A stretch of DNA of 64,000 nucleotides from an uncultured Candidatus Saccharibacteria bacterium (GCA_964461915.1 CAYWVD010000001.1:725910-789909), one strand, 5' to 3'; shown: positions 7,713 through 50,152, counted from the first letter of the stretch. Notes: generated from the sequence alone by a model not told the origin. Numbers and translations are program-made.

Positions 7713-7727
7713 TTAACCAATTATTGA

Positions 7728-8027: not shown

Positions 8028-8191
8028 TTAAGATAAAAATAAAAAATAAATTAAGGGAGAGAAAGAATATTTCGGAGGAAATAACACTCTGCACCTTTAC
8101 AGTTGATATTATACCATAGAAATCATTTTTAAACACCAATTGACTAATATTAAGAATTGGATTAATAATTAGGTATATTAATAATATTAAA

Positions 8192-8800: not shown

Positions 8801-8810
8801 AAATCAATTT

Positions 8811-9650: not shown

Positions 9651-9692
9651 TTTAAGGCATGATTTGCTATAAAATTAATTTATTAATTATAA

Positions 9693-30286: not shown

Positions 30287-30889
30287 TTATTCTATGCAGC
30301 AATCAACAGCTTTTTTAACTAAGTCTCCGAGTTTACTGAAAAGATTTTTATTTTCAGGCTTTTCGGATTCTTTCGATTTTAATTCGGCTTTTGATGCTGT
30401 GGGAGCAGTATCCTTAATTATATCATGCTTATTTAAAGCTTGTGAAGGGATTTTCTTGACATCTGAGACATCGATTAAGTTTAGGTTAAGACCCCAGAAG
30501 AGTGAGTATAGTTCATAAGAGTTCTTGAAAATTTCCTCCGCTTCTTCCTTTTTACCTTGAGATTGTAGTTTGGTCCCGTATTCCATTACACGCATACTGG
30601 CTGCTAATAGATGTTTTGAGATGCACCATACTTCGCCTTCGTAATCTTTGATTATTCTCTTTAATAGATTTTTTCGCATCTCGCGGATCTGCATAAGAAT
30701 ATCATAGTATTTGTTGTCGCCTGTTTTTGCGCCGGTAAAGAAGAAATGCTCTTCCATGCTAATTAAATTCATTATGGCAATTGAAAGATCCTCATCTGCC
30801 GAAAGATCTTTTAAATTTTGTTTTTTTGCATCTAGGGCTTTTTTAATGAATTCGTCGATCTTGTCTGTTTTAATTGTTTGATCGGACAT
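30287..30889 (-). CDS. Hypothetical cytoplasmic protein.
   Basis: No recognisable motifs; Lys/Glu-rich. Confidence 0.45.
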   Translation of the reverse strand: MSDQTIKTDKIDEFIKKALDAKKQNLKDLSADEDLSIAIMNLISMEEHFFFTGAKTGDNKYYDILMQIREMRKNLLKRIIKDYEGEVWCISKHLLAASMRVMEYGTKLQSQGKKEEAEEIFKNSYELYSLFWGLNLNLIDVSDVKKIPSQALNKHDIIKDTAPTASKAELKSKESEKPENKNLFSKLGDLVKKAVDCCIE

Positions 30890-34004: not shown

Positions 34005-35429
34005 TTGCCTAATTATATCTTAAAATCATTCAAAATGGATATTAATGCAATTTGGAAAGTCACACTCGCGCAAATAGAAGTTAAATTAGATTCCACTGCT
34101 CAATACAAAACTTGGTTTAAAGATACAAAATTAGTTGAAATCACGGGCGGGAAAGCCGCAATTGGTGTTAAGAATTCTTACGCTCTGGATTGGCTTCATG
34201 ACCATCATCACATGCTTATCCGCGAAACTTTATCCTATGTTTATGGCAAACCACTCGAACCTTTCTATATTATTGATAAATCGCTAGTAAACAATCCTAC
34301 ACCGAAGATTGATCAATCCGAAGTCGAAAAGACATCCCCGATGATTGGATACATTGCAAATGATGGAAAGAATCCAAATTTATCCTTAAGTTTAAGGCGT
34401 TCAAATCTCAAAGAGGACTTTAGTTTTGGCACATATATCGTAGGTGGGTCAAATAAGATGGCACATGCCGCAGCCCTCGGGGTAGCAAAAAAACCGGGAG
34501 AAATGTACAATCCCCTTTTTATTTATGGACGAACAGGTGTTGGAAAAACTCATCTTGGACAAGCAGTAGCAAGGCAAATTTTAGAAGATAATTACACAAA
34601 GAAAATTTTATACATTCCTTCTGAAGGCTTTCTAAATGACATGGTCAAATCGATAAAATCAGGGAAGAACCTTGAGTTTAGAGCAAAATATAGAAGTCTT
34701 GACCTCTTAATCATCGACGACATCCAATTTATTTCAAAATGGCAAGAAACCCAGAACGAGTTCTTTAATACATTTAATGTACTCCACAACGATAAAAAAC
34801 AGGTCATTTTGATATCAGATCGACCCCCTCATGAAATCTCGGGAATTGAAGAAAGACTTCGTTCAAGATTCCAAGGAGGAATTACAGTCGATGTCGGAAC
34901 ACCAGATTACGAAATGCGTTTAGCTATCATTCAAAAGAAAGCCAACAAACTTGGGCTTACTATTAATCCAAAAGTATTTGAATACATTGCAAAATTAGTT
35001 GAGGATAATATCCGTGAACTTGAAGGAGCATTACAAAAAGTTGCCCTATATCAGTCCATGTTTGGACCGGATATTACTTACGAAGAAGTAGAAAAAATGC
35101 TCGGACGCGACAAAAAAAGCAGAAGGCTAAAAGTAAAAGTACCAATTATTCTAAAAATGATTTCAAAAGAATTTAACATTTCAGTTAAAGATCTTAAAAG
35201 CCAAAGTAGGACTTCGGACTTGGCTTTTGCAAGGCAAGTAGCAATGTTCATTTTGCGAGAAGATTTTGGTTTTAAACTTGATCAAGTTGCTCAATACCTT
35301 GACAGGAAAGACCATACAACAGTTCTTCATGCCGTAGACAAAATTAAAAGCAAGTTAATGATCGATGAGGGATTTAAAATTCAAATGGATCAGTTAAGAG
35401 AAAATATTTTAAGAGATAATGAACTTTAA
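34005..35429 (+). CDS. dnaA: Chromosomal replication initiator DnaA. The probable true start is the Met at 34035 (MDINAIWK...).
   Basis: Walker A GRTGVGKTHL, Walker B LLIIDDIQF, sensor/arginine finger, C-terminal DNA-binding HTH (TTVLHAVDKI). Confidence 0.95.
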   Translation: MPNYILKSFKMDINAIWKVTLAQIEVKLDSTAQYKTWFKDTKLVEITGGKAAIGVKNSYALDWLHDHHHMLIRETLSYVYGKPLEPFYIIDKSLVNNPTPKIDQSEVEKTSPMIGYIANDGKNPNLSLSLRRSNLKEDFSFGTYIVGGSNKMAHAAALGVAKKPGEMYNPLFIYGRTGVGKTHLGQAVARQILEDNYTKKILYIPSEGFLNDMVKSIKSGKNLEFRAKYRSLDLLIIDDIQFISKWQETQNEFFNTFNVLHNDKKQVILISDRPPHEISGIEERLRSRFQGGITVDVGTPDYEMRLAIIQKKANKLGLTINPKVFEYIAKLVEDNIRELEGALQKVALYQSMFGPDITYEEVEKMLGRDKKSRRLKVKVPIILKMISKEFNISVKDLKSQSRTSDLAFARQVAMFILREDFGFKLDQVAQYLDRKDHTTVLHAVDKIKSKLMIDEGFKIQMDQLRENILRDNEL

Positions 35430-35741
35430 AATTAATTTATCCCCAAAATGAATAATCAAAAAGGCATTGAGAACAAGATAATAAAAAGCTTAAAATGGTT
35501 TGCCAATAAATCTTTTCACTATCCAGATTTTTACCCACAATGCTCTATTTCGATATTATTCATTCCTATAATTAAGTTTTTTGATTGTCAAAAAAAAGTT
35601 ATCCAAAAACTTCCCACCATGATTTTGAAAGAAATTAATAATCTAGGGCTATACTTTAAGAAGATTATCCACTTATCAACACACTATACTTATACTAATT
35701 CTATTTATTTATATATAATATAATATTATTACGAACTAACT
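35430..35741 (+). promoter_or_regulatory. Candidate oriC: four co-oriented DnaA-box-like 9-mers plus an AT-rich unwinding element just upstream of dnaN.
   Basis: TTATCCCCA 35446-54, TTACCCACA 35530-38, TTATCCAAA 35599-607, TTATCCACT 35665-73; AT tract ctatttatttatatataatataatattatt 35701-35731. Confidence 0.5.
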
Positions 35742-36872
35742 ATGAAGATCTCAGTACTCCAAGAAAACCTCGCAAAAGCTTTACTGTATGTAAATCGAGC
35801 AGTATCAGTTAGGCCAAATATACCAGTTTTAGCCAATGTCTTAATTGAAGCAGATAAAGGCAAGATAAAACTCTCGGCAACCAATCTGGAAGTAGGAATC
35901 GCCTTGTGGATAGGTGCAGAGGTAGCAGAACCTGGTAAACTTACAGTCTCTGCCAAACTTCTTACTGAATTTATTAATTCTTTAAAGAAGGGAAAAATCG
36001 ATGCATATATTCAAGAACAAATGTTTGAGGTTAACTTTGTGGATAATACTGCACAGTTCTTCATCATACCAGCAGACGACTTTCCCAAGGTTCCACAAGC
36101 CGAAGGTGAAGTCCTTCTTGAAATAAATGCTTTTGAATTTGCTGACGCTATCTCAAAAACATCATTTTCAGCAGGGTTAGATGAATCCCGCCCTGTTCTA
36201 ACGGGAGTTTTAATGGTAGCAAAAGAAAAATCTCTTACCCTTGTTGGAGTTGATGGTTTTAGACTTTCAAGAAAAATCATTGATCTAAACAAAGTAATTA
36301 AGCAAGATGAATTTAAGGAAATAGTTCCTGCTAAAAGTTTGATTGAAATTGAAAAATTAATTAGAGAAGTTGGTGATGATAAAACAATGGTTCAGGTTTA
36401 CTACCTTGGAGCCAAGAATCAACTTCTATTTAAGATCGGGGATATCGAATTTTCTACAAGGCTTATCGAGGGGGAATTCCCTGATTATGAAAAAATCATT
36501 CCAAGCGAAAGCATAGTAAAATTTACAGTTAGCCGTGAAGAAATGGTTAATGTAATCAAAATAGCTTCAATTTTCGCAAGAAATGTCATCGGTAATAAAA
36601 CAAGATTCAAAATAATCCCGGAAGATAAAAAATTAAGCTTATCTGCTAGTGTAATTGATATTGGTAAAAATGAAAGTAAACTAGATTTAATCGATGCCAG
36701 TGGTGAAGAATTCGAAACTGGTTACAATATTAAATTCCTTAACGATATGGTTAATGCTATCAAATCTAAAGAAATCAAATTTGAGAGCAAAGGAGCTCAA
36801 TCTCCTGGAGTCTTTTTAGACCCCGATGATAAAAACTATATCCATATCATTATGCCCATGAGATTGGAATAA
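35742..36872 (+). CDS. dnaN: DNA polymerase III beta sliding clamp.
   Basis: 376 aa, three-domain clamp; MKISVLQENLAKALLYVNRAVS N-terminus typical. Confidence 0.9.
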   Translation: MKISVLQENLAKALLYVNRAVSVRPNIPVLANVLIEADKGKIKLSATNLEVGIALWIGAEVAEPGKLTVSAKLLTEFINSLKKGKIDAYIQEQMFEVNFVDNTAQFFIIPADDFPKVPQAEGEVLLEINAFEFADAISKTSFSAGLDESRPVLTGVLMVAKEKSLTLVGVDGFRLSRKIIDLNKVIKQDEFKEIVPAKSLIEIEKLIREVGDDKTMVQVYYLGAKNQLLFKIGDIEFSTRLIEGEFPDYEKIIPSESIVKFTVSREEMVNVIKIASIFARNVIGNKTRFKIIPEDKKLSLSASVIDIGKNESKLDLIDASGEEFETGYNIKFLNDMVNAIKSKEIKFESKGAQSPGVFLDPDDKNYIHIIMPMRLE

Positions 36873-36892: not shown

Positions 36893-38479
36893 TTGATGAA
36901 AAAATACTTAGTAATACTATTCTTTTTCTTACTAAATTGTTTTTGGGTTATTCAAGATAATACGCTACCGGCAATTGGAGATGATGCCAGATGGTTAAGC
37001 GAAACTTCAAATCTTACCCAAATTGTTCAATCTGGGGACACTCAAGCAGTTTTTGATAAATGGCAGAACATGTTTATCAAAGACACAAACAGCTTCCCAA
37101 GGACTCCTCTATTTACAGTATTGTCTGTTCCAAGTTTTTTGTTATTTGGAGTTAATGAAAATGTAGCAATAATTACTAATGTTTTTGTTCTTGCCATTAC
37201 CTCGTTACTACTAGTTTTTTTTGTTGAAGAACTATTCAAAAATAATTCGAATAAATCTAAGATCAGTCTATTTTCCATTCTGATCTTTAACCTAATGGCT
37301 GGGACTTATGGATTATCGAGGCTATACATGTCTGAGATCCTACAAACTGCTTTTGTTATTTTGATCAGTTTTATTTATTTAAAGAATAAAGATAAATTCT
37401 CATATAAAAGTTATTTGTTATTAGGTTTTTTGTGGGGATTAGCTTTCTTACTCAGATTTTTAATGCCAATGTATTTGATTATTCCGTCACTATTTTTCTT
37501 AAAATGGCAACTTAATCAAAAGAAGAAATTTTATGAATATGCTTTAGCAATAATTGTCTTCGCAATCCCATTTTTACTTACGACTTTGACTTGGTATGGA
37601 CAAAATCTTACTACCTACATTGAATTTACAAAATATACTTCTTCTGGAGAATTAGCCGAAATTACTTCGCTAGGGCCGGTTTATTCTCCAATTACTTGGT
37701 TTAAATATTGGAAAGTTATAGGTCTATGGCATTTTGGATTACCGATACTTTTAATGGGTGGAGTTAGTTTGATAATTAATTATTTCAAAACTTCAAAAAT
37801 CAAACTGTTATTTGCTTTTAAAGAACTAAATTTTTTGATTCTGTCCTTTTTACCGGCATTTATCTTAACTACATTAAGTGTTAATAAAACGGCAAGATAT
37901 TTTTATCCTGTTGAATTTTTCATCGTAGTAATTATTGCTTACCTTGTCTTTCAAGTCTGGGCAAACAAAAGCAAAGTGTTCAAATTATTTGTACTATTTT
38001 TGTTTGCCCTTTCGTTCTATCCATTTATTGATTCAATTATTAAAGTTTTGCCTAATATCCCCTACACAAATTTTATGTATAGTAGTTCTGAATATCAGAG
38101 GATTGATATTGATGAGCAAAAGTATTCATTCATAATTGAAGAACTAAAAAAGTATCCATATCTAGAAAAAGACGAAATATATCTTGTTGCTGAAACCCCA
38201 GAAGTTAATGATGCGCAGATACTTTGGTATGCTTCTCTGAAAGGTGAAGAGATAAAAACTATTGGAGAATTCTCTTTATACACCACCCTTGATGAAGGGA
38301 AGGCAAAAATTGATAAGGCTGATATTGTAATCCTTCATGTTGGACTTTCTTTTGATGAAAAATATTTACAGAAATACCTTGATGCCCTCGAATATGTTAA
38401 ATCAAATCCATCATTTGAACTGGTTTCTAATAAAGAATACACTGATTCCAGTTCCATTTTGATTTTTAAAAGAAAATAA
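36893..38479 (+). CDS. GT-C fold polytopic glycosyltransferase (PMT/ArnT-like, GT39/GT83-type).
   Basis: About 12 TM; first extracytoplasmic loop IGDDARW resembles the GT-C DE/DD motif; 528 aa with a soluble C-terminal domain. Confidence 0.55.
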   Translation: MMKKYLVILFFFLLNCFWVIQDNTLPAIGDDARWLSETSNLTQIVQSGDTQAVFDKWQNMFIKDTNSFPRTPLFTVLSVPSFLLFGVNENVAIITNVFVLAITSLLLVFFVEELFKNNSNKSKISLFSILIFNLMAGTYGLSRLYMSEILQTAFVILISFIYLKNKDKFSYKSYLLLGFLWGLAFLLRFLMPMYLIIPSLFFLKWQLNQKKKFYEYALAIIVFAIPFLLTTLTWYGQNLTTYIEFTKYTSSGELAEITSLGPVYSPITWFKYWKVIGLWHFGLPILLMGGVSLIINYFKTSKIKLLFAFKELNFLILSFLPAFILTTLSVNKTARYFYPVEFFIVVIIAYLVFQVWANKSKVFKLFVLFLFALSFYPFIDSIIKVLPNIPYTNFMYSSSEYQRIDIDEQKYSFIIEELKKYPYLEKDEIYLVAETPEVNDAQILWYASLKGEEIKTIGEFSLYTTLDEGKAKIDKADIVILHVGLSFDEKYLQKYLDALEYVKSNPSFELVSNKEYTDSSSILIFKRK

Positions 38480-39592
38480 ATGAACAACATAGAAGTTAAA
38501 TATGTAAATAAGGAGAATAAAGATGAATGGGATTCTTTTATAGAAAATTCTCGTTGGGGTGACATCCTTCAATTTTGGGAATGGGGTGAAACAAAGGCTA
38601 GTGAAAAATGGACACCTAAAAGGTTGGGTGTTTACAAAGATGGCGAACTAATACTTGCTGCTCAATGCTTGCTAAAAGAAGCAGGGGTTTTAGGGAAATA
38701 TATATATATTCCTCATGGCCCAGTATTCCAAACGATCAATGGACTCAAAGAAGGGATTAAACCTTTAAAAGAAGCTCTGATTCAACTTGCCGAACAAGAG
38801 GAAGGATTTGCAATAGAAATTGAACCTAAAATTGGAGAACTTCCTGATGAATTACTTGAATCCCCCATTGTCTCTGAGAACCTTCAATATTTAATAGATC
38901 CGGCTGTTCTTAAGCTCTTTGAATCTCAAGGATTCCGTAAGTCTAAAAGGAATATGCAACCTAAATACAAACTTTATTATGATCTTGATAAATCAGAAGA
39001 GGAACTTCTTCAGACAATGAAAAAGAATACCAGATACAACATCAAATTAGCTGCAAAAAAAGGTGTTGTGATTAATGAATATTCGTTAGATGATAAAAAG
39101 ATCGATCAAAAACTAGTCCAATTCTATGATTTGCTCCTAATAACTCAAGATCGAGCAAAAGGCTATCCGATAAGATCGTTTGAATATTTTAAAACCTTTA
39201 TAAATAGTTTTAAAAATTTGAACAATGTCTCGCTTTTTGAAGCCAGTTATGAAGGTAAAACCATAGCAATAAATATAAGTCAAAGAACAAAATACTGGTC
39301 ATCATCATTTTATGCAGCTTCTAATAGACTTTTCCCTGAAGTAAAAGCGACATATTTATTAAGATGGAAATCGATTTTGAAGGCAAAAGAGATGGGATCT
39401 AAGCTATATGATTTTTGGGGTATAGTCCCGGGATCAGACCAGCACAAAGGATATTCTGACAACAAGATGAGTTTCAATGGAGTAAGAATAGACACTTTTG
39501 GATTATTAAGCCTTCCATTGTCCCCTTCGAGATATTTTATATGGGACAAACTTTTGCCATTACGATCAAAATTCGGTAGATTAAAAATATAA
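38480..39592 (+). CDS. FemAB-family aminoacyl/peptidyl transferase (peptidoglycan interpeptide bridge formation family).
   Basis: W..F...W.....KASEKW N-terminus; LRWKSILKAKEMGSKLYDFWG C-terminal motif typical of FemX/FemAB (PF02388). Confidence 0.65.
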   Translation: MNNIEVKYVNKENKDEWDSFIENSRWGDILQFWEWGETKASEKWTPKRLGVYKDGELILAAQCLLKEAGVLGKYIYIPHGPVFQTINGLKEGIKPLKEALIQLAEQEEGFAIEIEPKIGELPDELLESPIVSENLQYLIDPAVLKLFESQGFRKSKRNMQPKYKLYYDLDKSEEELLQTMKKNTRYNIKLAAKKGVVINEYSLDDKKIDQKLVQFYDLLLITQDRAKGYPIRSFEYFKTFINSFKNLNNVSLFEASYEGKTIAINISQRTKYWSSSFYAASNRLFPEVKATYLLRWKSILKAKEMGSKLYDFWGIVPGSDQHKGYSDNKMSFNGVRIDTFGLLSLPLSPSRYFIWDKLLPLRSKFGRLKI

Positions 39593-39615
39593 TAATAATT
39601 TATTCTCGATAGTTT

Positions 39616-41430
39616 ATGGAAACTCTAAAACAGTATAAGCTGAACATCCTTCTTGTATTCACTTTGATCTTATCTATAGGGATAATTGGGGCAATTACAT
39701 TAAGATGGTATGAATTCCAACAAAATATTGTTTCCCCCAATCAAAATGTTTCAAACAATCAAGACACAAATGTTACACCCACTCTCCCTTTTATAGAAGA
39801 TCCGGGAACCGAACTCAATCTAGGTAATCGTATAGCAGGTACTGAAGAAACAATTGATGTTTATTCAACAAACACTGTTGTTCAAGATCAAGTCGAGCTC
39901 GTAAGACTATTCATTGAAAATGGCGAAGTGTTAAATGTTTCGTCAACACTAATGGCCTTCCCTGCTTGTTCAAATGAAAAAATGTTTACCCCAAACAGGG
40001 TTTGTCTTGATGTTGCAAAAACATCTCCAATGAATGTAAACGAGTTGATTGCAAAAATAACAATAAAGTGGGATGAAGACCAAGAAGGCAAGATCTGGAG
40101 AGAAAATTCAGCCGGGATTTATGTTACGGAGGATGTATTGGGTATAATAAATGTATCAAATAACGCATTAACTGATAACAACAATCAAAAATTTTTCGAA
40201 AAGTATGAATTTAGTTATTTTGATTCATTTCCTGTTCAATTAGTTGTAATGATAAGTGTAGCGGTCGCTACTATTTTAATAATATTTTTATTTGAAAAAA
40301 GCCAAAAAGGTAAAAATTTTAGTAAAATTTTTCGAATACTTGCCATTTTTAATCTCATTGGATTAACAATATTCTTAGGCAACTATATTAATACGCAGTA
40401 TGTTTTACCCGAAAATGTTAGGGCTGAAATACCCTTAATTAATAGAAATGACATGGTTTCTCCTGTCTTGACGTTTAATTTATGGAACAAATTTGGCGCA
40501 GAATCGGGCTTTTGTTCAGCTGGATGGCCTCATGAAAATTTGTGCCATACTGGTGTTGATGTGGGTACCAAACAAAAAATTTATGCTGTTGGTAAAGGTA
40601 AAGTAGTTGTAGCAAGTAATGGATATAACGGGGGGTATGGAAATCATGTGATAATTCAACACAATACAACTTCTGGTACCCTTTATACAGTATATTGTCA
40701 CTTTGAAGTAATATATGTTTCTAATGGTGATAATGTGGACGAAAATACTGCATTAGGTATGATGGGGTCTACTGGATATGCTGTAGGTGCCGATCCAACA
40801 CATTTACATTTTGAATTAAGGAATAGCACTGATTACGCCTCTGCTACGTTCTATAATCCTATCGATATTTTTTATAGGCAAAGAGGCTCGGTACCTAATC
40901 CTGAGGAGCCTGAGGAACCTGAGGAACCTGAGGAACCTGAGGATCCTGAGGAGCCTGAGGAACCTGAGGAGCCTGAGGAGCCTGAGGACAATATAGTTTG
41001 TGGTGGAAAATGCTATTCAGATTCGCAATGCGCAAAGGGTAATAAGGTGAAAACGGTTGAGTGTGATGAATCTATTAATCCGAATAATAACAAATGTATT
41101 ATTTTGACTTGCGATACTGGATATTATGTTGATGGCTGTACATGCAAATTAATTACAAACCCTTACAATCCAACTACTAGCACTACTTCCTCTCCCGTTC
41201 CTACTCAGGGACCAGGGAATACAATTGTTTGTGGTGCAATGGATTTTGATGGAAATAATAGAATTGATATAGCGGATTTAATAAATTTTGTTAATAAATA
41301 TAATAAGAATTGTTCAGATATTTATAACGACTCTAAATATGGCGCATTGGATGCTAATCAAGATGGAAAAGTAAATTTTTATGACATTATCAAATTTAAG
41401 AGTTTTTATAACAAGGGAGTTCTCTTTTAA
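39616..41430 (+). CDS. Multi-domain surface protein: TM, paralogous CxC-W-domain, TM, M23 peptidase (LytM/lysostaphin-type), PEEPEE repeat, Cys-rich knot, dockerin-like C-terminus.
   Basis: M23 motifs HTGVDVG (HxxxD) and THLHFELR (HxH); PEEPEEPEE x10; C-terminal DFDGNNRIDIADLINFV and DANQDGKVNFYDIIKFKSFY dockerin-like EF-hand pair. Confidence 0.7.
   Translation: METLKQYKLNILLVFTLILSIGIIGAITLRWYEFQQNIVSPNQNVSNNQDTNVTPTLPFIEDPGTELNLGNRIAGTEETIDVYSTNTVVQDQVELVRLFIENGEVLNVSSTLMAFPACSNEKMFTPNRVCLDVAKTSPMNVNELIAKITIKWDEDQEGKIWRENSAGIYVTEDVLGIINVSNNALTDNNNQKFFEKYEFSYFDSFPVQLVVMISVAVATILIIFLFEKSQKGKNFSKIFRILAIFNLIGLTIFLGNYINTQYVLPENVRAEIPLINRNDMVSPVLTFNLWNKFGAESGFCSAGWPHENLCHTGVDVGTKQKIYAVGKGKVVVASNGYNGGYGNHVIIQHNTTSGTLYTVYCHFEVIYVSNGDNVDENTALGMMGSTGYAVGADPTHLHFELRNSTDYASATFYNPIDIFYRQRGSVPNPEEPEEPEEPEEPEDPEEPEEPEEPEEPEDNIVCGGKCYSDSQCAKGNKVKTVECDESINPNNNKCIILTCDTGYYVDGCTCKLITNPYNPTTSTTSSPVPTQGPGNTIVCGAMDFDGNNRIDIADLINFVNKYNKNCSDIYNDSKYGALDANQDGKVNFYDIIKFKSFYNKGVLF
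40901..40990 (+). repeat. Tandem 9-bp repeat (CCTGAGGAR) x10 encoding the (PEE)n linker.
   Basis: Read directly: cctgaggag cctgaggaa cctgaggaa cctgaggaa cctgaggat cctgaggag cctgaggaa cctgaggag cctgaggag cctgaggac. Confidence 0.9.
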
Positions 41431-41499
41431 TTAAGAACATTTGATTTAATAATTTATTAATAATAATATTAGTATTAATTGTATTTACCTTTTAAGAAC

Positions 41500-42084
41500 A
41501 TGATTAAAAAAATTTTAACAGCTTTATTAGTTGTCTCATTTTCGTTCGCTTCTATCTCAGATATTAAAGCCCTTAGCTTAAATCCTTCGGGGGGAAACAA
41601 AGCGGCTGGTGCCACCGAAACAATTAAACTTATAGCCAGTCCAGCTAGTACAACCGATGTTGTTGTAAGATTGAAGCTCCATCTTGAGAATGCTACAGTT
41701 GAAGATTTTTCAAGTTCACTAAGCGCTTTTGGTACATGCGAACCTAGTGGGGGTAACTTTACTAATACCGATCTTTGTGTCGATCTTGCCAAACTAGCTG
41801 GATCATATATTCAAAATGGAGAAGAAATTGGTTCCTTGCGTGTTAAATGGGGATCATCAGGTACTGCCACTATTACGAAATTATCTGGGACGGGCTACTA
41901 TAATGACACAAATCTTGTAGAATCTTTGGGCGTTGCTGGAACCTATGTAATTGGCAATGTTCCTAATACTGCTCTAGAACTTCCTATCGACAGTAGAATC
42001 ATATTTATCTTTTTAGGCCTCGCATCAATATATGCCGGGGTTAATTTAAAAACTATTAAAAGAAAATCACATGAAGACATTTAA
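41500..42084 (+). CDS. Small secreted surface protein: signal peptide, paralogous CxC-W-YYND domain, C-terminal hydrophobic anchor plus basic tail (LPIDS variant).
   Basis: MIKKILTALLVVSFSFASI signal; GTCEPSGGNFTNTDLCVDLAK...VKWG...GYYND; C-terminus LELPIDSRIIFIFLGLASIYAGVNLKTIKRK. Confidence 0.6.
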   Translation: MIKKILTALLVVSFSFASISDIKALSLNPSGGNKAAGATETIKLIASPASTTDVVVRLKLHLENATVEDFSSSLSAFGTCEPSGGNFTNTDLCVDLAKLAGSYIQNGEEIGSLRVKWGSSGTATITKLSGTGYYNDTNLVESLGVAGTYVIGNVPNTALELPIDSRIIFIFLGLASIYAGVNLKTIKRKSHEDI

Positions 42085-44626
42085 AGTTAATGATTCTATG
42101 AGCCCCAAAAAAAACCTAAAACAAAAAGGTATAAGTGGCACGGCTTTTTTCTTACTTGTGTCGATATTTGTATTTGTGTCTGTCAGTTTAGGTTCTTTTT
42201 TCAGAGTAGCGACATTCCTTTATGATCAAGATATTGCTTTATTGAATAAGTTGGATACTGAAGAAACCTTATCTGCCCTACCGATTACCGGAACTCCTGA
42301 TGATCAGTTTTTCCTAATGGCGTTAACAATCATCTTTGCGATAGCTATAACATTTGCAATTATGCTTAAACTTAGCAGAATGAAATTTAATGTTAAAGAT
42401 GAGGTCGGAAAATCAAAGAAGTTTTCGATTAAAAATAATCCAGCATTATTTATTCTCTTTTCCTTATTAATACTAACCCTTATTGTTGGAACTGCTTTGG
42501 TAATAAAGCAGGGCTTGGAGGTAAGTACAATCCAATCGACTAAAACAGAATTCACAGATTTAAGTTTGGTTGAATTAAAAAACACAACTCGAACTCCAGG
42601 AACGATAGAATCCTTCTATATCACAGCAAATCCCAAAACTGAGTTTGACACTGTCGCAATGATCAAGCTCCAATTTTCTAATGTGAAAATTCTTAATGTT
42701 GAACCAAATTACTTTTTAACAATTGGCACCTGTGAAAACGGCGAAATGTATACTGAGGATAAAATCTGTGCAGATGTTTCGAATAAAGATAAATTCAAAT
42801 ATGGGGATAAATTATTAAAAGTCTCCGTTGAATGGGGCAATACAGGCGAATACGAAATAACTTCCCTTGCCGATAATGGTTATTACAATGGAAGTGAAGT
42901 TAGCAAAGACGACATTCTTGTCGCTTTTGATTCTCTTTCATTTTTACCATTAACCGGAGAAGAACAAGCCGAGCCATCATATTCAGAATCCTTAAATTCT
43001 CAAGAATCTATAACAACATTCTTATTAGTTGGTGTAGCATTCATTGGCATATTAATTTTATTAATTGTATTGATAAGGACTCACCCTGTTTTTAAAAAAG
43101 TAGCAGTATTCTACTCTATTGGGTTAATAATTATTTTAGGAGGGTCGGCAGTTTATATTAGTAATGAATTGCAAAAAGAGCAAGAAATTATCAATGCAGA
43201 AGCAAGTGATGCAGAAGGTTGGGGGAATTGCGATAAATATAATGAAATTTGCAAAAAAACTTCAAATTATCGGATAATAGACACTAATAATGTAGTCATC
43301 AAAGACAACCCGGGGAAAGCTAAAGATTGTCTAGATAGTACAATGACTATACAGAAAAAAAGTTCTAATGGAGAATGGTATGATGTACCAAATTTAACAC
43401 CAGACAGCGAAATAGGTTTTCATTGTGTCAAGACCTATGATCCTATTTATGGAGAATCATACCAAGCTCATTGCAGACCTTGTGTTGATTGTCAGGATGC
43501 GGGCTTATTTTTATTTTGTAGCCCAGAAACGCCAACCGTTACTGTTACAGTAACCGATCTTCCAGATACGAGTGAATGGGAAGATTGTCCTTATCCTAAT
43601 ACTTGGAATTTCTGTGTTTGGGATTTATTACATTTTCCGAAAATAACTTATAAAATTTGTGGTGATAATCAAAAACTAACAGATAGGATAGCAGAATACA
43701 ACGCCGCAAACCCAGATGATAAATTGATTTTACCAACAAATACAGCCTTGTATTGTAATAGGATTTCGGCTTTACCTCCTCAATGTAAAGTAGATTGTAA
43801 TTATTGTAAAGATGAAAATTCTGGTGTTTTTATCCCCTACACTGTGAGTTGTAACCCACCTGTTACAGTTACACAATCCCCAAGCGCTATACCTAAAGAT
43901 TATGAAAGTTGTTCAAGCCTTAATGCGATGTGTTCTGCTGCTATTAATGACTTCTTCGCTTGTGCTGAAAATAATCAATCAGTTTATTGTAATGGTGGGC
44001 AAGCATATTGCAAAGTTTGTCCTGGGGCCTGTTCAAATGAAACATATGAATGTGTAGATTCTGAAGAACCAACTCCAACAGATTCTCCAGTAACCACAGA
44101 TGACCCTGAAGAGCCAACTGATGAGCCTAAACCAACAGACCCTCAGCCCACAGGAACGGATCCAACAACTCCCACCCAACCAACCAACCCAACTAATCCA
44201 ACAACTCTCCCCCAACCAACCTCAACCATCATAGGTTCATATCAGTGTGGACAGAAGGGTTGTACAAAGGATAGCGATTGCGAAACTGGTAGTCCAGATT
44301 ATGAGTGCGATGAAAAAGCTGATCCAACTCAAAATGTTTGTATTCGATTGTGTAAAGCAAACGAAACTAGAATTGATTCTTGTACCTGTAGCGGTGATCA
44401 AGAGACGGTTGTTTGCGGACCCATTGATACTAATGGAGATGGCCTTATAAACTATATTGATCTTGCTCCATTCGCTAAGATATATAACAAACATTGTTCG
44501 GATACTGCTATTGATTATGGTGTTTGCGGAGGAAAGGATACGAACAAAGATGGAGTGCTTAACTATGTCGATCTTGGTCATTTTGCTCTTAAATACTTTC
44601 CAAGATCTGCCAATTGTAATCTCTAA
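42071..44626 (+). CDS. Large multi-module surface protein with two internal sorting-signal-like segments, the paralogous domain, a Cys-rich region, a Thr/Pro linker and a C-terminal Cys-knot plus dockerin-like module.
   Basis: ALPITGTPDD + TM + KLSRMK near residue 70; GTCENGEMYTEDKICADVS...VEWG...GYYNG; SFLPLTGEEQ + TM + IRTHP near residue 300; C-terminus CGQKGCTKDSDCETG...VCGPIDTNGDGLINYIDLAPFAKIY...CGGKDTNKDGVLNYVDLGHFALKYFPRS. Confidence 0.65.
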   Translation: MKTFKVNDSMSPKKNLKQKGISGTAFFLLVSIFVFVSVSLGSFFRVATFLYDQDIALLNKLDTEETLSALPITGTPDDQFFLMALTIIFAIAITFAIMLKLSRMKFNVKDEVGKSKKFSIKNNPALFILFSLLILTLIVGTALVIKQGLEVSTIQSTKTEFTDLSLVELKNTTRTPGTIESFYITANPKTEFDTVAMIKLQFSNVKILNVEPNYFLTIGTCENGEMYTEDKICADVSNKDKFKYGDKLLKVSVEWGNTGEYEITSLADNGYYNGSEVSKDDILVAFDSLSFLPLTGEEQAEPSYSESLNSQESITTFLLVGVAFIGILILLIVLIRTHPVFKKVAVFYSIGLIIILGGSAVYISNELQKEQEIINAEASDAEGWGNCDKYNEICKKTSNYRIIDTNNVVIKDNPGKAKDCLDSTMTIQKKSSNGEWYDVPNLTPDSEIGFHCVKTYDPIYGESYQAHCRPCVDCQDAGLFLFCSPETPTVTVTVTDLPDTSEWEDCPYPNTWNFCVWDLLHFPKITYKICGDNQKLTDRIAEYNAANPDDKLILPTNTALYCNRISALPPQCKVDCNYCKDENSGVFIPYTVSCNPPVTVTQSPSAIPKDYESCSSLNAMCSAAINDFFACAENNQSVYCNGGQAYCKVCPGACSNETYECVDSEEPTPTDSPVTTDDPEEPTDEPKPTDPQPTGTDPTTPTQPTNPTNPTTLPQPTSTIIGSYQCGQKGCTKDSDCETGSPDYECDEKADPTQNVCIRLCKANETRIDSCTCSGDQETVVCGPIDTNGDGLINYIDLAPFAKIYNKHCSDTAIDYGVCGGKDTNKDGVLNYVDLGHFALKYFPRSANCNL

Positions 44627-44654
44627 TAAACAATTAAATATTAATCTTTTAACG

Positions 44655-45311
44655 ATGTTTCAAAAATCGAGGTTGTATAAAGTGGCTGGGTTCCTAGCAT
44701 TTTTACTCATAGCAATCTTTTCTGTAAGTTTAATTTTTATTCAAATGCTAAATGGAGGACTTATGGTGTCCCCCATTCGAGTTGAAAAAGATGCAGGATT
44801 AGAATTTGATAAGGACATAGTTTATCCTGGATCAACTACAAAAATCATTGTTAAAGCTGCTCCATCAGACTTAACCCAAACAGTCGCTGTAATCAGATAC
44901 GAAGTAACTAATGCAGAAATTGTTTCTGTAACTGCATTAAAAAATATTGCAATGGGGACATGTGAAAATGGTGAAATGTTTACCAGCAATAAGATATGCG
45001 TGGATATCAGTGATGGGACTCCTCTACACGAAGGCGAAGAGCTATTATCAGTAGAACTCAAATGGGGAGAGGATGGTAATGCATATATCAAAGCTGGTGA
45101 GGATAACGGATATTACAATGGGCAGTATTTTGTTCCTGAAAAAGTTGCTAACTATTCAATTGATCAATCTATGCTTCCATTTACAGGTGACAACACGGAT
45201 AATACTCAAAATTCACAACTTATTAATGGCATTGATAATTTTGTACTAATAGGAAGCTTCTTAACAATTATTGTAATTATTGTCATTTTGAAGTTATCAA
45301 AAAAAGATTAG
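44655..45311 (+). CDS. LPxTG-anchored surface protein with the paralogous domain (canonical sortase substrate). The true start is the Met at 44655, not the track start 44457.
   Basis: GTCENGEMFTSNKICVDISDG...LKWGEDG...GYYNG; C-terminus LPFTGDNTDN...VLIGSFLTIIVIIVILKLSKKD. Confidence 0.65.
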   Translation: MFQKSRLYKVAGFLAFLLIAIFSVSLIFIQMLNGGLMVSPIRVEKDAGLEFDKDIVYPGSTTKIIVKAAPSDLTQTVAVIRYEVTNAEIVSVTALKNIAMGTCENGEMFTSNKICVDISDGTPLHEGEELLSVELKWGEDGNAYIKAGEDNGYYNGQYFVPEKVANYSIDQSMLPFTGDNTDNTQNSQLINGIDNFVLIGSFLTIIVIIVILKLSKKD

Positions 45312-46550
45312 GTGAAAGGAATAAATAAATTTGAAGTAAAAAATTGGCTCGTTTTTTTACTGGCTGTTCTTTTAATAGCCGGAGGTCTTTGGCTATCTCA
45401 AAACTATAATAAAATTGGATCTGTCTCTATACTTTCTGAAAGCTTTAACTTCCCAATTTATCTATTAGCTGGATTTTCAATACTTTTACTTGTTTTCTTT
45501 CTTTTTTTAGAAGTAAAAAAGGATGGAAATATTAGAAAAAATCTTGCAAAGCTATCTATCCCAATGGTCTTTTTAATGGCTTTCACAACGATATATATTG
45601 GCCAAAGCATTAAATACAGACAAGAAATCGAAGATGTTGAGGCTAAAATTAAAATCTTCTACCAGAGGTGCAATGAGGAGAAGTACAATTTAGCTTGTGA
45701 AAATGAAGAATACCCTGTTTTGCCAAATAGCTGTTGGAATGGTGAGGGGTCAAATATGTCATTTAATTGCTATCTTGATGGGCATTGCGCTTTATGTAAA
45801 GGCTGTAAAATTAATTCATTAGGATTGGCAGATTGCGAAACTGTTACCGAAGATGATATTGCAAACAATCTATGTCTAAAAAGTTCAAAGTATCGAGATG
45901 GAATTTTTTGCATCGATGGATACTCTGTTGAATGTAATGCATATACACAAAGTGTTAAAGTGGAATGTCCGAAAGGGTTTATTTGTAAAGAAGGTGGAGG
46001 ATGTGTGAGGGAATCACAGCCTACGACAACCCCGATAACCGAACCCACAATCATTAACCCAACAGTGGTTAAACCCACATATGTTAATCCAACATACATT
46101 AAACCTTCGGGCCCTAAAGCTACCGGTACAATTAAGCCTATCGATATTACCCCTAAACTACTTGCATGTGGGCAAAAAGGATGTACTAATGACAATCAAT
46201 GCGAGACGGGTTTGCCTAATTTTGAATGTGATCAAAAAGTTGATTCATCTCAAAATGTTTGCGTGAGAGTTTGTAAATCAAACCAAACCAGAATAGATGC
46301 CTGTACTTGTAGCGGTGATTTTGAGGGTATAACTTGTGGACCAATTGATGTTAATGGTGATTCGAAGCTTAATTATATCGACCTAGCTAGTTTTGCTCTA
46401 TCGTATTTTAAAAAATGTAATGATTCACCCTATATTTCGGGAAGTGGCTGTGGAGGTAAGGATGTAAATGGAGATGGAATTATTAACTATATTGATCTTG
46501 GTTCTTTTGCAATAAGATACTTTCCAAGATCCCAAAATTGTTTAAAATAA
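45312..46550 (+). CDS. Membrane protein (about 3 TM) with a Cys-rich ectodomain, Pro/Thr linker and C-terminal Cys-knot plus dockerin-like module.
   Basis: C-terminus ACGQKGCTNDNQCETGLPNFECDQK...CGPIDVNGDSKLNYIDLASFALSYF...CGGKDVNGDGIINYIDLGSFAIRYFPRSQNC, nearly identical to the architecture of the 42071 protein's C-terminus. Confidence 0.65.
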   Translation: MKGINKFEVKNWLVFLLAVLLIAGGLWLSQNYNKIGSVSILSESFNFPIYLLAGFSILLLVFFLFLEVKKDGNIRKNLAKLSIPMVFLMAFTTIYIGQSIKYRQEIEDVEAKIKIFYQRCNEEKYNLACENEEYPVLPNSCWNGEGSNMSFNCYLDGHCALCKGCKINSLGLADCETVTEDDIANNLCLKSSKYRDGIFCIDGYSVECNAYTQSVKVECPKGFICKEGGGCVRESQPTTTPITEPTIINPTVVKPTYVNPTYIKPSGPKATGTIKPIDITPKLLACGQKGCTNDNQCETGLPNFECDQKVDSSQNVCVRVCKSNQTRIDACTCSGDFEGITCGPIDVNGDSKLNYIDLASFALSYFKKCNDSPYISGSGCGGKDVNGDGIINYIDLGSFAIRYFPRSQNCLK

Positions 46551-46581
46551 AGTAAGATATATAATAATTAAAATATAAGAA

Positions 46582-47877
46582 ATGGAAAAAAATTCGATTC
46601 TTGTTAAAGCCTTTTTTGTTTCGGCAACTCTTCTCATCTTGATGCTTTCATCCCTGCTCGTAAAGCAAAGCTTTGTTGCTACCCCTAGCCTTCTTGGCGT
46701 CTCAGATGATAGGACTAATTTAGAGCAACAAAATTCTGCCATGATTGTAGAAGGTGCGCAGACATTGAATATTGCGAGTAAAATTTTGGGAACGACCGAA
46801 AGGATCGTTATAGAGGCAGATCCAGAAGTAATGAACGCAAATATTTGGTTAATTCGTTTGAAAATTCGTGGCGGAGAGATCCTAGAAGTTAATAACCTTG
46901 TAGATTCTATGTTACCTGCTTGCGCAAATAAAAAGGAAGTTAATGTTGATGAGGTATGTGTCGATGTCGTCAAAGAAGGTAATTTTGCAAAAGGTGATAA
47001 AGCTATTGAAATCGTTGTTAATTGGGATGATCCGGATGGAGGAGGAATCTATAGGATGTCTCAAGATGCATATTACAATGGGGAATCTTTGGACTATTCA
47101 AACTTGATTGGACCTAAAGTAGCAGGTGCTAGTACAACTGCATCATCAAATGTTACTGTGTCAATGTCTCCAACTACAATAATTTTGATAATAATAGGTT
47201 TAGTCTTGATAGGAGTTGCTGGTGTTGGTTTTTATATGACATTAAGAAATCCTAATAAATCAGCAGGGATGCCAACCTCTTCTATAAGCGGACAAAGTCC
47301 TTCTAAAATCTTAGTCATGTCGAGTATTGTAATGATGACAGCTGGAACTGTCTTTTCAGCAGCATTATTAACAAACAATACAACGGCACCCGAAGATACA
47401 AGTGCTTTATTACCTAATGACAATGATGAATCCATTGTTACTAATAAGCCTACAAATACACCAACTAATACGCCAATCAATACACCAACCAGTACTCCAA
47501 CTTTGACTCCAACTTTAACATTTACTCCAACTGTATTGCCTACATATTTCCCTACATATACAGTAAGGCCAACAATCATTTATTACACTGTAATTCCGAC
47601 ATCAAGCCCAACGCCAACTGTGACGCCTATTAGCAAGCCACCTCTAACAGATAATGTTGTGTGTGGTCCAATAGATGTAAACGGAGACCTAAAGCTTGAC
47701 TATATAGACTATGTAGTATTTAGTTACATGTATGGATATCATTGTAGTGATACTTACCCTGCAGTAGGATGCGGAGGAAAGGATACAAATGGAGATGGCG
47801 TTATCAATTATATTGATCTTGGCTATTTCCAAATGAATTATTATCCAAAAAACCTCAACTGTAGTGTTGAAGATTAA
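46582..47877 (+). CDS. Surface protein: signal/TM, paralogous domain, TM, long Thr-Pro linker, C-terminal dockerin-like module.
   Basis: LPACANKKEVNVDEVCVDVVK...VNWDDPDGG...AYYNG; TNKPTNTPTNTPINTPTSTPTLTPTLTFTPT; VCGPIDVNGDLKLDYIDYVVFSYMY...CGGKDTNGDGVINYIDLGYFQMNYYPKN. Confidence 0.65.
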   Translation: MEKNSILVKAFFVSATLLILMLSSLLVKQSFVATPSLLGVSDDRTNLEQQNSAMIVEGAQTLNIASKILGTTERIVIEADPEVMNANIWLIRLKIRGGEILEVNNLVDSMLPACANKKEVNVDEVCVDVVKEGNFAKGDKAIEIVVNWDDPDGGGIYRMSQDAYYNGESLDYSNLIGPKVAGASTTASSNVTVSMSPTTIILIIIGLVLIGVAGVGFYMTLRNPNKSAGMPTSSISGQSPSKILVMSSIVMMTAGTVFSAALLTNNTTAPEDTSALLPNDNDESIVTNKPTNTPTNTPINTPTSTPTLTPTLTFTPTVLPTYFPTYTVRPTIIYYTVIPTSSPTPTVTPISKPPLTDNVVCGPIDVNGDLKLDYIDYVVFSYMYGYHCSDTYPAVGCGGKDTNGDGVINYIDLGYFQMNYYPKNLNCSVED

Positions 47878-47882
47878 AATAA

Positions 47883-49121
47883 ATGCTAAAACCAATATTA
47901 ATAGCTGCCTCTCCTAATACGGAAGAAGATGATCTTAATCTGAGTAAAAAATATTTATTCAAATCATCCCTTTGGTATGATGAGAGCAAAACAAATAAAA
48001 TTGAAGATATCATTGGTAAAGACTTTTCAGGTAAGGCTTTTGCCTTCGATTCTGCAAGATCGGCTTTTTATGTTTATCTAAAATCCTTAGATTTACCAAA
48101 AAATTCAGAAGTAATACTTCCAGCGTTTTCTTGCATGGTTATTGCTAATTCAGTTCTATGGGCCGGTTTAACACCTGTTTTTGTAGATTGCAATAAAGAT
48201 GATTTCAACTACGACTTTATTGATCTACAGAAAAAACTTTCTGATAAAACTAAGGTCGTTTTAGTTCAGCATTCTTTTGGATTCCCCGAAGATTTAAAAG
48301 GCCTTAGAACCATTGTCGGATCTAACATCCTAATTGTCGAGGATTTGGCTCATAGTCTTGGAGGTTTTGACAAAGATGGAAATAAACTTGGGGCGTTAGC
48401 TGATGCTTCTATATTAACTTTTGGTATCGAAAAAGTCATTTCGGGAGTGCGTGGAGGTATGCTAATTGTTAGGGGCGACGATTCTTTGGCAGAAAAAATA
48501 AAAATGTTTAAGGCTAAATTGCCAATTTTTCCCAAAAATAAAACATTTATTGCTCTTTTGAACCCGATTTTATGGTCAATAATTACGCCTGTCTATTATC
48601 TCGGTATCGGTAAATTTACCATTGGTCGATTGATCGTTTACCTATCCCATTTATTTGGGATCTTTGGAATTATGATCGAAGATTGTGAGTATAGGCAGTG
48701 CAAGCCAGACTGGCTCCCTAGCAAGATTAGTCCTGTTCTATCGGAACTAGCATTGAACCAATATCAAAAACTTTCTATGCTTAATACGCATAGATTTGAA
48801 ATTGCCAATCAATATATCATTGAACTTGGTCTAAAAGATGTTAAATTCAATACTGTTTTTTTAAGATTCCCCATTAGAGTGAACAATAGGCAAAAAGTAA
48901 TAGAACTAACCAAAAAAAATGGAATTGTTTTAGGTGATTGGTATAAAACAATCCTATATGCCCCTAAAAATTCTTTGGAATCTCTTGGATACAGAATGGG
49001 ATCATGCCCTACTGCAGAGCTCTTATCAGAAGATATTGTTAATCTGCCGACTCACATAAAAGTTAATAAAGAAGATGCTCTAAGAATAGCTCAATTAATA
49101 AAACCGTATATTAAAAAATGA
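47883..49121 (+). CDS. DegT/DnrJ/EryC1/StrS-family PLP-dependent sugar aminotransferase.
   Basis: VILPAFSCMVIANSVLWAGLTPVFVD...VLVQHSFGFP...LIVEDLAHSLGG...SILTFGIEKVISG (PLP lysine). Confidence 0.65.
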   Translation: MLKPILIAASPNTEEDDLNLSKKYLFKSSLWYDESKTNKIEDIIGKDFSGKAFAFDSARSAFYVYLKSLDLPKNSEVILPAFSCMVIANSVLWAGLTPVFVDCNKDDFNYDFIDLQKKLSDKTKVVLVQHSFGFPEDLKGLRTIVGSNILIVEDLAHSLGGFDKDGNKLGALADASILTFGIEKVISGVRGGMLIVRGDDSLAEKIKMFKAKLPIFPKNKTFIALLNPILWSIITPVYYLGIGKFTIGRLIVYLSHLFGIFGIMIEDCEYRQCKPDWLPSKISPVLSELALNQYQKLSMLNTHRFEIANQYIIELGLKDVKFNTVFLRFPIRVNNRQKVIELTKKNGIVLGDWYKTILYAPKNSLESLGYRMGSCPTAELLSEDIVNLPTHIKVNKEDALRIAQLIKPYIKK

Positions 49122-50152
49122 TAGAAAAAATAGTCGATCAAAATATTTACACTAATTACTGGGAAGTTAATAATGCTAATATATTACAGCATTGGACTTG
49201 GGGCGAAGTAAAAAAGGATGAGGGCTGGAAAGTTCTAAGGTATGCTTTGAGGTTTGGTGTTAACGAAGTAGCAATTCAGATACAGGTTAAGAAGATCCCC
49301 CTGTTGCCTTATGAATTTGGATACATCCCTAAAATAAATTCAAAGGCTTATGATTTGTTAATTCAAAACGAAAAAGAGTTAATAACTGAATTTAAAGCGC
49401 TGGGCATTGCCTTTGTAATAGTCGAATTTGATAAAAATTGTTTAAGTAAATATGAGGGTGAGTATTTTGTCGATTACGAAGGTCATATTCAACCACTACA
49501 AACAAATATGGTAGATCTAAGAAAATCCGAGGGTGAAATCTTTATGCAGATGGATGGTAATTATCGAAGGAATATTAAAAAAGCAGAGAGGTCTAATATT
49601 TCTATCGAATTCTTCCATGCTGAAGTAAAGCCACTTGATGATTTCTACTCTATTCTCAATGAAATTTTTGCAAATACAAAATTACTTGAAAGGGATGCAT
49701 CCTATTACAAAAACCTTTGGTCTAAACTTAGTGACACAAACAATCAGCTGGCATTTATTGCAACTGCAAAGGTAGAAAATGAAGTGGTCGGGAGTTATCT
49801 ACTAGTTCACGACAAAATCGGTTGCTATGAACTTTATGGGGGGGTGAATAAAAAAGGAAGAGATCTTGAAGCAGGTTACAAATTGAAGTGGGAAGCCATG
49901 AAGTACGCCAAAAGTCTTGGACTTTCATATTATGATCATTGGGGAGTCGCAAAAATATTGCCTGACAATACTTATGATAAAAAAGATGAACTTTATAGAA
50001 TATCATTATTCAAAAAAGGTTTTGGTGGAGAAAATGTAATATTCCCCAAACCCAAAGCTCTTCTAGTGAATCAATTCGTTTACAACTATTTTAAATCACT
50101 TCAATTAGCGAATAAAGTCAAGACAAAAATTAAAAAACTGGTTAAATCTTAG
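49118..50152 (+). CDS. FemAB-family transferase (second copy).
   Basis: W.W.....K..EGW N-terminus; ELYGGVNKKGRDLEAGYKLKWEAMKYAKSLGLSYYDHWG C-terminal signature; 4-bp overlap with the preceding gene. Confidence 0.65.
   Translation: MIEKIVDQNIYTNYWEVNNANILQHWTWGEVKKDEGWKVLRYALRFGVNEVAIQIQVKKIPLLPYEFGYIPKINSKAYDLLIQNEKELITEFKALGIAFVIVEFDKNCLSKYEGEYFVDYEGHIQPLQTNMVDLRKSEGEIFMQMDGNYRRNIKKAERSNISIEFFHAEVKPLDDFYSILNEIFANTKLLERDASYYKNLWSKLSDTNNQLAFIATAKVENEVVGSYLLVHDKIGCYELYGGVNKKGRDLEAGYKLKWEAMKYAKSLGLSYYDHWGVAKILPDNTYDKKDELYRISLFKKGFGGENVIFPKPKALLVNQFVYNYFKSLQLANKVKTKIKKLVKS

Follow-up and report, generated by a model that had tools for sequence, protein, structure and literature searches.

The six middle genes of a ten-gene cluster (g1 to g10) lying next to dnaA and dnaN in a 64-kb stretch of bacterial DNA (CAYWVD010000001.1:725910-789909; the whole of this stretch, 64,000 nucleotides, is referred to as the window) probably constitute a lineage-specific cohesin-dockerin display island, set within a conserved envelope-enzyme operon, whose products would assemble a surface coat. 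This reading is built on folds, motifs, paralogy and synteny, from which binding between modules, cleavage by sortase, membrane topology and biological role are predicted. A preliminary description of the cluster had taken it for one dedicated locus in which four enzymes build, decorate and anchor the surface proteins that they bracket. The genes and enzymes that it listed are present, with all of the enzyme assignments (GT-C, two FemAB, M23 and DegT) scoring above the Pfam gathering cut-offs, and comparison of related genomes speaks against a single dedicated locus.

Organisation of the gene cluster

Ten consecutive open reading frames (ORFs) on the plus strand fill positions 36893-50152, with intergenic gaps of -14 to +48 nt. 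The start codons of g4 (ATG 41500) and g6 (ATG 44655) lie downstream of the longest-ORF starts. The genes are as follows (TM, transmembrane segment):

g1, 36893..38479 (+), GT-C fold membrane glycosyltransferase of the PMT_2 family; backbone cassette gene
g2, 38480..39592 (+), FemAB#1, FemX-like peptidoglycan cross-bridge aminoacyl transferase; backbone gene
g3, 39616..41430 (+), signal-anchor, cohesin-like module (~39748-40233), degenerate sorting motif NALTD, TM hairpin, M23 endopeptidase 40546-40830, PEEPEE linker, Cys-rich knot, dockerin 41188-41427 (from Pfam, hidden Markov model (HMM) and TM prediction)
g4, 41500..42084 (+), signal peptide, cohesin-like module (N-module HMM 7.7e-44), VPNTA (41959-41973), hydrophobic segment, KRK tail
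g5, 42071..44626 (+), TM, LPITG (42278-42292), TM, basic loop, TM, cohesin-like module (42506-43018), LPLTG (42944-42958), TM, basic loop, TM, ~330-aa Cys-rich domain, Thr/Pro linker, Cys-rich knot, dockerin 44384-44623
g6, 44655..45311 (+), signal or anchor, cohesin-like module (44742-45242), LPFTG (45174-45188), hydrophobic segment, KKD tail
g7, 45312..46550 (+), three TM, Cys-rich domain, Thr/Pro linker, Cys-rich knot, dockerin 46308-46547
g8, 46582..47877 (+), signal or anchor, cohesin-like module (46651-47175), KVAG replacing LPxTG, TM hairpin, long Thr/Pro stalk, dockerin 47635-47874
g9, 47883..49121 (+), DegT/DnrJ/EryC1-type pyridoxal phosphate (PLP) aminotransferase; backbone gene
g10, 49118..50152 (+), FemAB#2, FemAB/GNAT fold, overlapping g9 by 4 nt; backbone gene

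All-against-all blastp comparison of the g3 to g8 products showed real paralogy, attributable to two distinct shared modules rather than one: an N-terminal module of ~130 residues (the N-module) in g3, g4, g5, g6 and g8, and a C-terminal module of ~75 residues in g3, g5, g7 and g8, giving an island of five cohesin-like and four dockerin modules. The paralogy of the six proteins had been described correctly, but the dockerin-like module then ascribed to all six is confined to four of them, and the cohesin-like module common to five of the six had gone unreported. The previously described Thr/Pro-rich linkers are present in g3, g5, g7 and g8, some being rich in Pro/Glu instead. The sole island protein with a dockerin but no cohesin-like module is g7, which shares 55% identity with g5 over 163 aa (blastp); the g6 stop codon (TAG) is followed directly, and in frame, by the g7 start codon (GTG), so that g6 and g7 together look like an unfused, split counterpart of g5. 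Stop-codon read-through joining g6 to g7 was considered and rejected: in the related locus L005 the two copies overlap in different reading frames, and they are thus genuinely separate genes.

No glycoside hydrolase (GH) or carbohydrate-binding module (CBM) domain was found in the six island proteins (Pfam, NCBIfam), and the M23 endopeptidase of g3 is the only recognised catalytic cargo (Peptidase_M23, 3.5e-19, 69.2 bits against a cut-off of 28.7), with intact zinc-ligand motifs HxxxD (HTGVD) and HxH (HLH). Among relatives in the N-module family, M23 is also the payload of P0022, and P0057 carries thermolysin-like and amidase_2 payloads. The Cys-rich payload of g5 had no Pfam or PDB match. Orthologues of g5 share 98% and 82% identity with it, and its Thr/Pro linker (~aa 695-715) varies in length among strains: the 98%-identical P0001 lacks 12 aa there, and P0002 has 19 aa inserted. 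A homology search with the whole of g5 returned 2 close matches only, due to saturation of the candidate list by low-complexity linkers.

The dockerin and cohesin-like modules

The C-terminal module comprises two DxNxDGxIxxxD loops, a helix after each, and four conserved cysteines, so that tandem 12-residue Ca2+ loops with helices (an F-hand pair), the hallmark of a dockerin, stand at the C-terminus of a secreted protein. Matches of the window proteins to Pfam Dockerin_1 (PF00404) scored 15.0-17.8 bits, below the cut-off of 22.9 (E-values of 0.015 for g3 and 0.0039 for g7), and the homologue P0009, the g5-type protein of related locus L007, scored 23.6 bits against the same cut-off. A profile search of the PDB using the dockerin module retrieved dockerins at ~1e-5. 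When genome contigs were searched with a profile of the dockerin alignment, one locus only was retrieved, from a close relative.

Neither the sequence nor the profile of the N-module matched any PDB entry. Two cysteines are invariant across the alignment of the five paralogous N-modules, and when 1.84 billion representative proteins were searched with a profile of these five, only 225 relatives were retrieved at E<=0.001; a profile of 45 N-modules gave 5 matches only in a word-indexed database. An AlphaFold model of the g6 N-module, built with 45 family sequences, had a mean predicted local distance difference test score (pLDDT) of 85.9, with ~97 in the core, and showed a nine-stranded beta-sandwich jelly-roll that superposes on solved cohesins, indicating that the N-module is probably a very divergent cohesin fold. 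The two modules also occur together on single proteins, as 51 of the 151 examined (the best representatives of the N-module family and the close relatives P0001 and P0002) carry the same four-Cys dockerin. Within the island neither module is found without the other, and in each insert of this kind among related genomes the number of N-modules equals the number of dockerins plus one.

Sorting signals

The LPxTG signals previously reported for the bracketed proteins were confirmed for g5, g6 and, in variant form, g4, the only island proteins with a motif, a hydrophobic segment and a basic tail; g3, g7 and g8 are without an LPxTG-type signal. The signals of g6 (LPFTG...KLSKKD) and g4 (VPNTA...KTIKRK) are C-terminal. 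Both signals of g5 are internal, LPITG at aa 70 (...KLSRMK) and LPLTG at aa 292 (...IRTHPVFKK), and each is trailed by a second hydrophobic segment and then by further protein, with ~510 residues lying beyond the second signal. At the aligned position g3 has the decayed motif NALTD. In g8 and its relatives P0004, P0012-14, P0016 and P0038, the position that carries LPxTG in the other subfamilies is taken by a conserved [KQ]VAG, which may be a different processing or recognition motif.

Of 116 examined proteins of the wider family with a TM downstream of the module, 43 have LPxT[GAS] preceding that TM (we estimate a chance rate of ~0.002 per protein). The signal is internal in 16 of these 43, with the order cohesin, LPxTG, TM, basic loop, TM, payload. 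Variants of the motif (LPNTA, LPNTS, LPxTA) are frequent among family members of ~200 aa. In a separate subgroup (P0057, P0064, P0067, P0071, P0077, P0091 and P0109) the order is cohesin, TM, basic loop, TM, LPxTG, payload, the motif standing after the second TM. Elsewhere in the window, the ORF at 62853-63695 (-) encodes 280 aa with an N-terminal TM, LPNTGEE immediately after it (aa 37) and a Thr/Pro stretch, and has no Pfam match. An LPxTG upstream of the entire payload is seen in this ORF, at the g5 N-terminus and in L019 at 7456-10845 (-).

A motif in this position has a precedent in the streptococcal M26 IgA1 metalloproteases (ZmpA/Iga), in which an N-terminal LPXTG upstream of the payload precedes hydrophobic segments and the mature enzyme lies outside the membrane (PMC9637739). 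The same motif order is found at the g5 N-terminus, at the internal junction of g5, in the ORF at 62853-63695 and in the P0057-type relatives. The proteins described here differ in that a whole folded cohesin often precedes the LPxTG and, given the predicted cleavage, would itself end up attached to the wall; further differences lie in payload, taxon and dockerin tail.

The flanking enzymes and conservation of the locus

Pfam searches identified g1 as PMT_2 (PF13231; 3.4e-09, 37.6 bits against a cut-off of 26.1), g2 as FemAB (PF02388; 6.8e-40, 137.6 bits against 24), g9 as DegT_DnrJ_EryC1 (PF01041; 2.3e-35, 122.9 bits against 19.8) and g10 as FemAB (2.8e-17, 63.1 bits against 24) with a further match to Acetyltransf_6 (2.7e-07); NCBIfam and PDB sequence searches concurred with these calls. 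The g1 product had no match among PDB sequences, and shows the features of a GT-C enzyme: its profile score exceeds the cut-off, its membrane core is polytopic (~10 predicted TM) and its first outer loop contains acidic residues (a DD pair, IGDDARW, after TM1). The best PDB relative of g2 is the Staphylococcus aureus lipid II:glycine glycyltransferase FemX (6snr, 6.8e-21), and g2 most likely builds the peptidoglycan cross-bridge; g10 is 25% identical to g2 (blastp). For g9, 54 solved PLP-dependent enzymes were matched at E<=1e-5, nearly all of sugar-aminotransferase/DegT type, and the best relatives were the sugar aminotransferases 7n63, QdtB, perosamine synthase and ArnB (1e-20 to 1e-13). By-eye alignment with the SxxxK region suggests that the lysine of TFGIEKVISG is the PLP-binding lysine.

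The cassette can be likened to two known systems, the FemXAB cross-bridge enzymes, through the resemblance of g2 to S. aureus FemX, and the Arn-type pathway for lipid-linked amino sugars, which pairs DegT and GT-C enzymes, through the resemblance of g9 to ArnB and the membership of g1 in PMT_2, a family that also takes in ArnT. It differs from the Arn pathway in being without an ArnA-, ArnC- or ArnD-like partner, two FemAB-type genes flanking DegT instead. The cassette may make an amino sugar that is aminoacylated and carried by a wall polymer.

Related loci retain the enzyme genes with differing numbers of structural genes between FemAB#1 and DegT. Six structural genes are found in L001 and L002, as in the window, and L005, whose contig ends early, has the window arrangement as far as the contig extends. 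The remaining informative loci are as follows:

L007 (g2 identity 68%), PMT_2, FemAB, cohesin-only, two cohesin+dockerin genes, DegT, FemAB (contig end)
L008 (g2 identity 61%), as L007, with three structural genes
L014 and L016 (dockerin 55-58% identical, about as diverged as L007/L008), four structural genes, the M23 protein being added
L009 (g2 identity 56%), dnaA-dnaN-PMT_2-FemAB-DegT-FemAB-uvrD, no structural gene
L010 (complete Dojkabacteria genome CP129475.1; g2 identity 52%), as L009, then Transglut-ArgRS-DnaG-FtsK
L011 (g2 identity 47%), FemAB-DegT only
L012 (g2 identity 44%), FemAB-FemAB-MurG

The insert at the FemAB#1/DegT junction thus exists in states of 0, 3, 4 and 6 genes, and an HMM scan found N-modules and dockerins solely within these inserts. 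FemAB-DegT adjacency is the best conserved part of the cassette. The best-supported interpretation is that the enzymes would form an older, self-contained cassette between dnaA-dnaN and uvrD/pcrA, working independently of the middle genes. The island most plausibly goes back to a single ancestral insertion at the FemAB#1/DegT junction that grew from 3 to 4 to 6 genes, probably by duplication, fusion and splitting. As the cassette is contiguous without structural genes in L009 and L010, bracketing of the island by enzymes can be attributed to a single insertion followed by vertical descent. Recent horizontal acquisition of the island was also considered; its guanine-cytosine (GC) content of 0.33-0.36 is no different from that of the remainder of the window. 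A second variable junction of the backbone lies between dnaN and PMT_2, where one or two GGDEF (and HD) genes are found (L007 6609-8357, L008 5023-8344).

Proposed assembly of the surface coat

In the proposed mechanism all six island proteins would be exported. A sortase whose gene lies elsewhere in the genome would cleave at VPNTA or LPxTG and attach the cohesin-only products of g4 and g6, together with the cohesin portion of g5, covalently to the wall, in the manner of an anchoring scaffoldin. Sortase is encoded in more than half of the genomes of the candidate phyla radiation (CPR) (PMC6744442). The second hydrophobic stretch after each internal signal would re-insert the downstream half of the protein, as a membrane anchor or a cleavable signal peptide, and the cargo would thereby be extracellular, each with a Ca2+-type dockerin at its end: the M23 domain of g3, the Cys-rich domains of g5 and g7, and the Thr/Pro stalk of g8. 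Dockerins would bind sibling cohesins in trans, such that g3, g5 and g8 chain, the cohesin-only g4 and g6 anchor, and the dockerin-only g7 terminates. The predicted outcome is a self-assembling coat bearing putative adhesive domains and an enzyme that hydrolyses the wall; plausibly the bacterium would use it to attach to a host cell or to attack one.

A more specific version, which we offer tentatively and regard as doubtful, is that proteins of the g5 type are sortase-split polyproteins, cut at the internal LPxTG so that the cohesin half becomes wall-bound and the re-inserted cargo-dockerin half plugs into wall cohesins. If true, anchor and cargo would be made 1:1 from one gene, and membrane and wall would be bridged in a CPR bacterium. 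In its boldest form this version would have the adjoining GT-C/DegT/FemAB enzymes build the wall amine acceptor for that sortase, accounting for the site of the island. The recurrent cohesin-LPxTG-TM-TM-cargo-dockerin layout provides a concrete, testable case of sortase acting within a polypeptide.

Alternative explanations

Several observations weigh against a cohesin-dockerin display island. None of the five N-modules had a Pfam (PF00963) or NCBIfam cohesin match at E<=0.1; the dockerin profile also matches EF-hand pairs, e.g. calmodulin, at similar E-values; and we infer binding of one module by the other from fold and co-occurrence only. The lack of an LPxTG-type signal in g3 and g8 is a further difficulty, and a sortase, sought as a TLxTC-containing ORF, was not found in the window or in loci L001-L027. 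The second hydrophobic segment fits both an anchor and a cleaved signal peptide. The absence of structural genes from L009 and L010 is a statement about this locus rather than the whole genome, and in the lineage that has the island it invariably adjoins the enzymes, which makes a functional link possible.

This last point favours the model of the preliminary description, in which DegT supplies an amino-sugar donor, the GT-C enzyme transfers sugar from a polyprenyl carrier to the Thr/Pro linkers and FemAB enzymes build the cross-bridge used by sortase. The enzyme assignments and the Thr/Pro-rich linkers agree with it, as do the tight packing and co-orientation of the ten genes, the position of the island between FemAB#1 and DegT in every relative that has it, and locus L024, in which a FemAB-like gene lies 2.5 kb from two tandem cohesin+dockerin genes. 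We nevertheless consider the model unlikely. The cassette is intact without a structural gene in L009 and L010, with the four enzyme ORFs overlapping in L010 (8353-13352), and L011 keeps FemAB-DegT; conversely, distant cohesin or cohesin+dockerin genes in L006, L019, L022 and L025 stand in housekeeping surroundings with none of these enzymes within 7-10 kb. The shared position is accounted for by one insertion and vertical descent, and a survey of ORFs and Pfam matches found no sugar dehydratase, dehydrogenase or polyprenyl-phosphate GT2 glycosyltransferase at the locus to round out a donor pathway. Packing and co-orientation are usual near the origin of this genome. The cumulative GC skew of the window is at its minimum at 34-36 kb, i.e. 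at dnaA (34005-35429) and dnaN (35742-36872), which lie immediately upstream of the cluster, g1 beginning 20 nt past dnaN. The cluster is therefore on the leading strand adjoining the replication origin, where both properties are expected and so give weak evidence of shared function. Promoter and terminator scans gave counts at or below shuffle expectation and were for that reason uninformative on operon structure. The attractive interpretation of the cluster as an operon for glycosylation plus anchoring is corrected here as unsupported. A looser link between cassette and island may exist, in which sortase would use a housekeeping FemX cross-bridge or the GT-C enzyme would glycosylate Thr/Pro linkers among other substrates.

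Distinctly improbable, in our assessment, is that the N-module is a generic immunoglobulin-like or pilin-type adhesin domain and the C-terminal module a Ca2+ stabiliser, the proteins acting singly as adhesins anchored by sortase or building a fibre that sortase assembles. The LPxTG signals suit this explanation, as do the missing Pfam Cohesin match and the comparable matches of the C-terminal module to EF-hand pairs and dockerins noted above. It does not account for the pairing of the two modules on a third of the family proteins examined (51/151), no pilus-type sortase gene adjoins any of the loci, and no pilin-type YPKN-like motif was noticed on reading the five-module alignment, which was not a systematic search.

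A lysostaphin/Lif-like attack-immunity pair, of the kind known as lysostaphin-lif in Staphylococcus simulans, in which the M23 enzyme of g3 cuts host or competitor cross-bridges, the FemAB of g2 alters those of the producer and the other genes serve delivery or display, is very improbable despite the intact M23 catalytic motifs and the position of FemAB#1 directly upstream of the M23 gene in the window, L001, L002, L014 and L016, as FemAB#1 is a backbone gene without an M23 gene in L007-L011, and the 3-gene islands of L007 and L008, being without one, indicate that the g2-g3 adjacency is late and secondary.

Relation to known systems

The known system closest in its parts to the proposed display island is the ruminococcal cellulosome/amylosome. 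Ruminococcus flavefaciens ScaE is a sortase-anchored cohesin protein, and R. bromii Amy4 carries both a cohesin and a dockerin. Shared with the island are the cohesin beta-sandwich, the dockerin with its duplicated Ca2+ loop, Thr/Pro-rich linkers, a cohesin-only anchor with a C-terminal LPxTG-type signal (here g4 and g6) and proteins bearing both modules that are predicted to be able to chain (here g3, g5 and g8). The island differs in that it is without GH or CBM cargo, having M23 and Cys-rich domains instead; its cohesin has diverged beyond the reach of PF00963 and contains a conserved disulfide pair, its dockerin is a four-Cys variant, and there is one cohesin per protein rather than an array. 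Cohesin, sorting signal, TM hairpin, cargo and dockerin are here combined on a single polypeptide, and the host is a CPR bacterium rather than a Firmicute. A cellulosome is defined by dockerin-borne carbohydrate-active enzymes and a CBM scaffoldin, neither of which is found in the island. The N-module is only 12-14% identical to the cohesins of the Clostridium perfringens NagJ/NanJ toxin complex (2w1n, 2vo8) and to the Archaeoglobus fulgidus cohesin (2xdh), and those systems are, unlike the island, without an internal sorting signal, TM hairpin or multi-paralogue island.

Taken singly, the elements were known already: cohesin-dockerin systems, cohesins anchored by sortase, proteins carrying both modules, and LPXTG motifs placed upstream. 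New here are the union of these elements in one polypeptide, a very divergent cohesin family containing a disulfide pair, the four-Cys dockerin, the non-carbohydrate cargo and the CPR host. A full-text literature search returned no paper tying Dojkabacteria, Patescibacteria or Saccharibacteria to such a system. CPR/Patescibacteria are thought to be host-attached, and their surface machinery is mostly annotated as "hypothetical protein". The island suggests that some Dojkabacteria use a cohesin-dockerin plug and socket for a surface coat of hydrolase and Cys-rich domains, not for fibre digestion, and the invisibility of this cohesin family to Pfam supports the view that sequence profiles under-count divergent cohesins.

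Host lineage and neighbouring genes

Homologues of g2 (n=149 at E<=1e-20) belong, where an organism name is given, to Candidatus Dojkabacteria, candidate division WS6 or Patescibacteria, and by this criterion the host of the island is a small-genome, candidate-phylum (CPR) bacterium of the Dojkabacteria. The closest GTDB representative, L005 (CAZLRZ010000021.1), is labelled 'uncultured Candidatus Saccharibacteria bacterium', which is probably a mis-assignment given the Dojkabacteria/WS6 names on g2 homologues.

Further genes of the window were as follows:

35448-35723 (+), 91-aa ORF between dnaA and dnaN, also a called gene in L001 and L002, no Pfam match; the space could alternatively house oriC elements
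52383-54215 (+), transglutaminase-core protein with a signal peptide and C-terminal TM, kept just past uvrD in L002, L005, L008, L010 and L011
61457-62650 (-), 397-aa Cys-rich protein with Thr/Pro linkers, no Pfam match; may be another secreted, disulfide-rich surface protein
30891-31925 (-) and 30287-30889 (-), signal-peptide protein with a CPEC (CxxC) motif, no Pfam match at E<=0.01

A role as thiol-disulfide oxidoreductase is possible for the CPEC protein and would agree with the abundance of Cys-rich ectodomains; Méheust et al. (PMC6744442) mention families of CxxC oxidoreductases and of VKOR in CPR.

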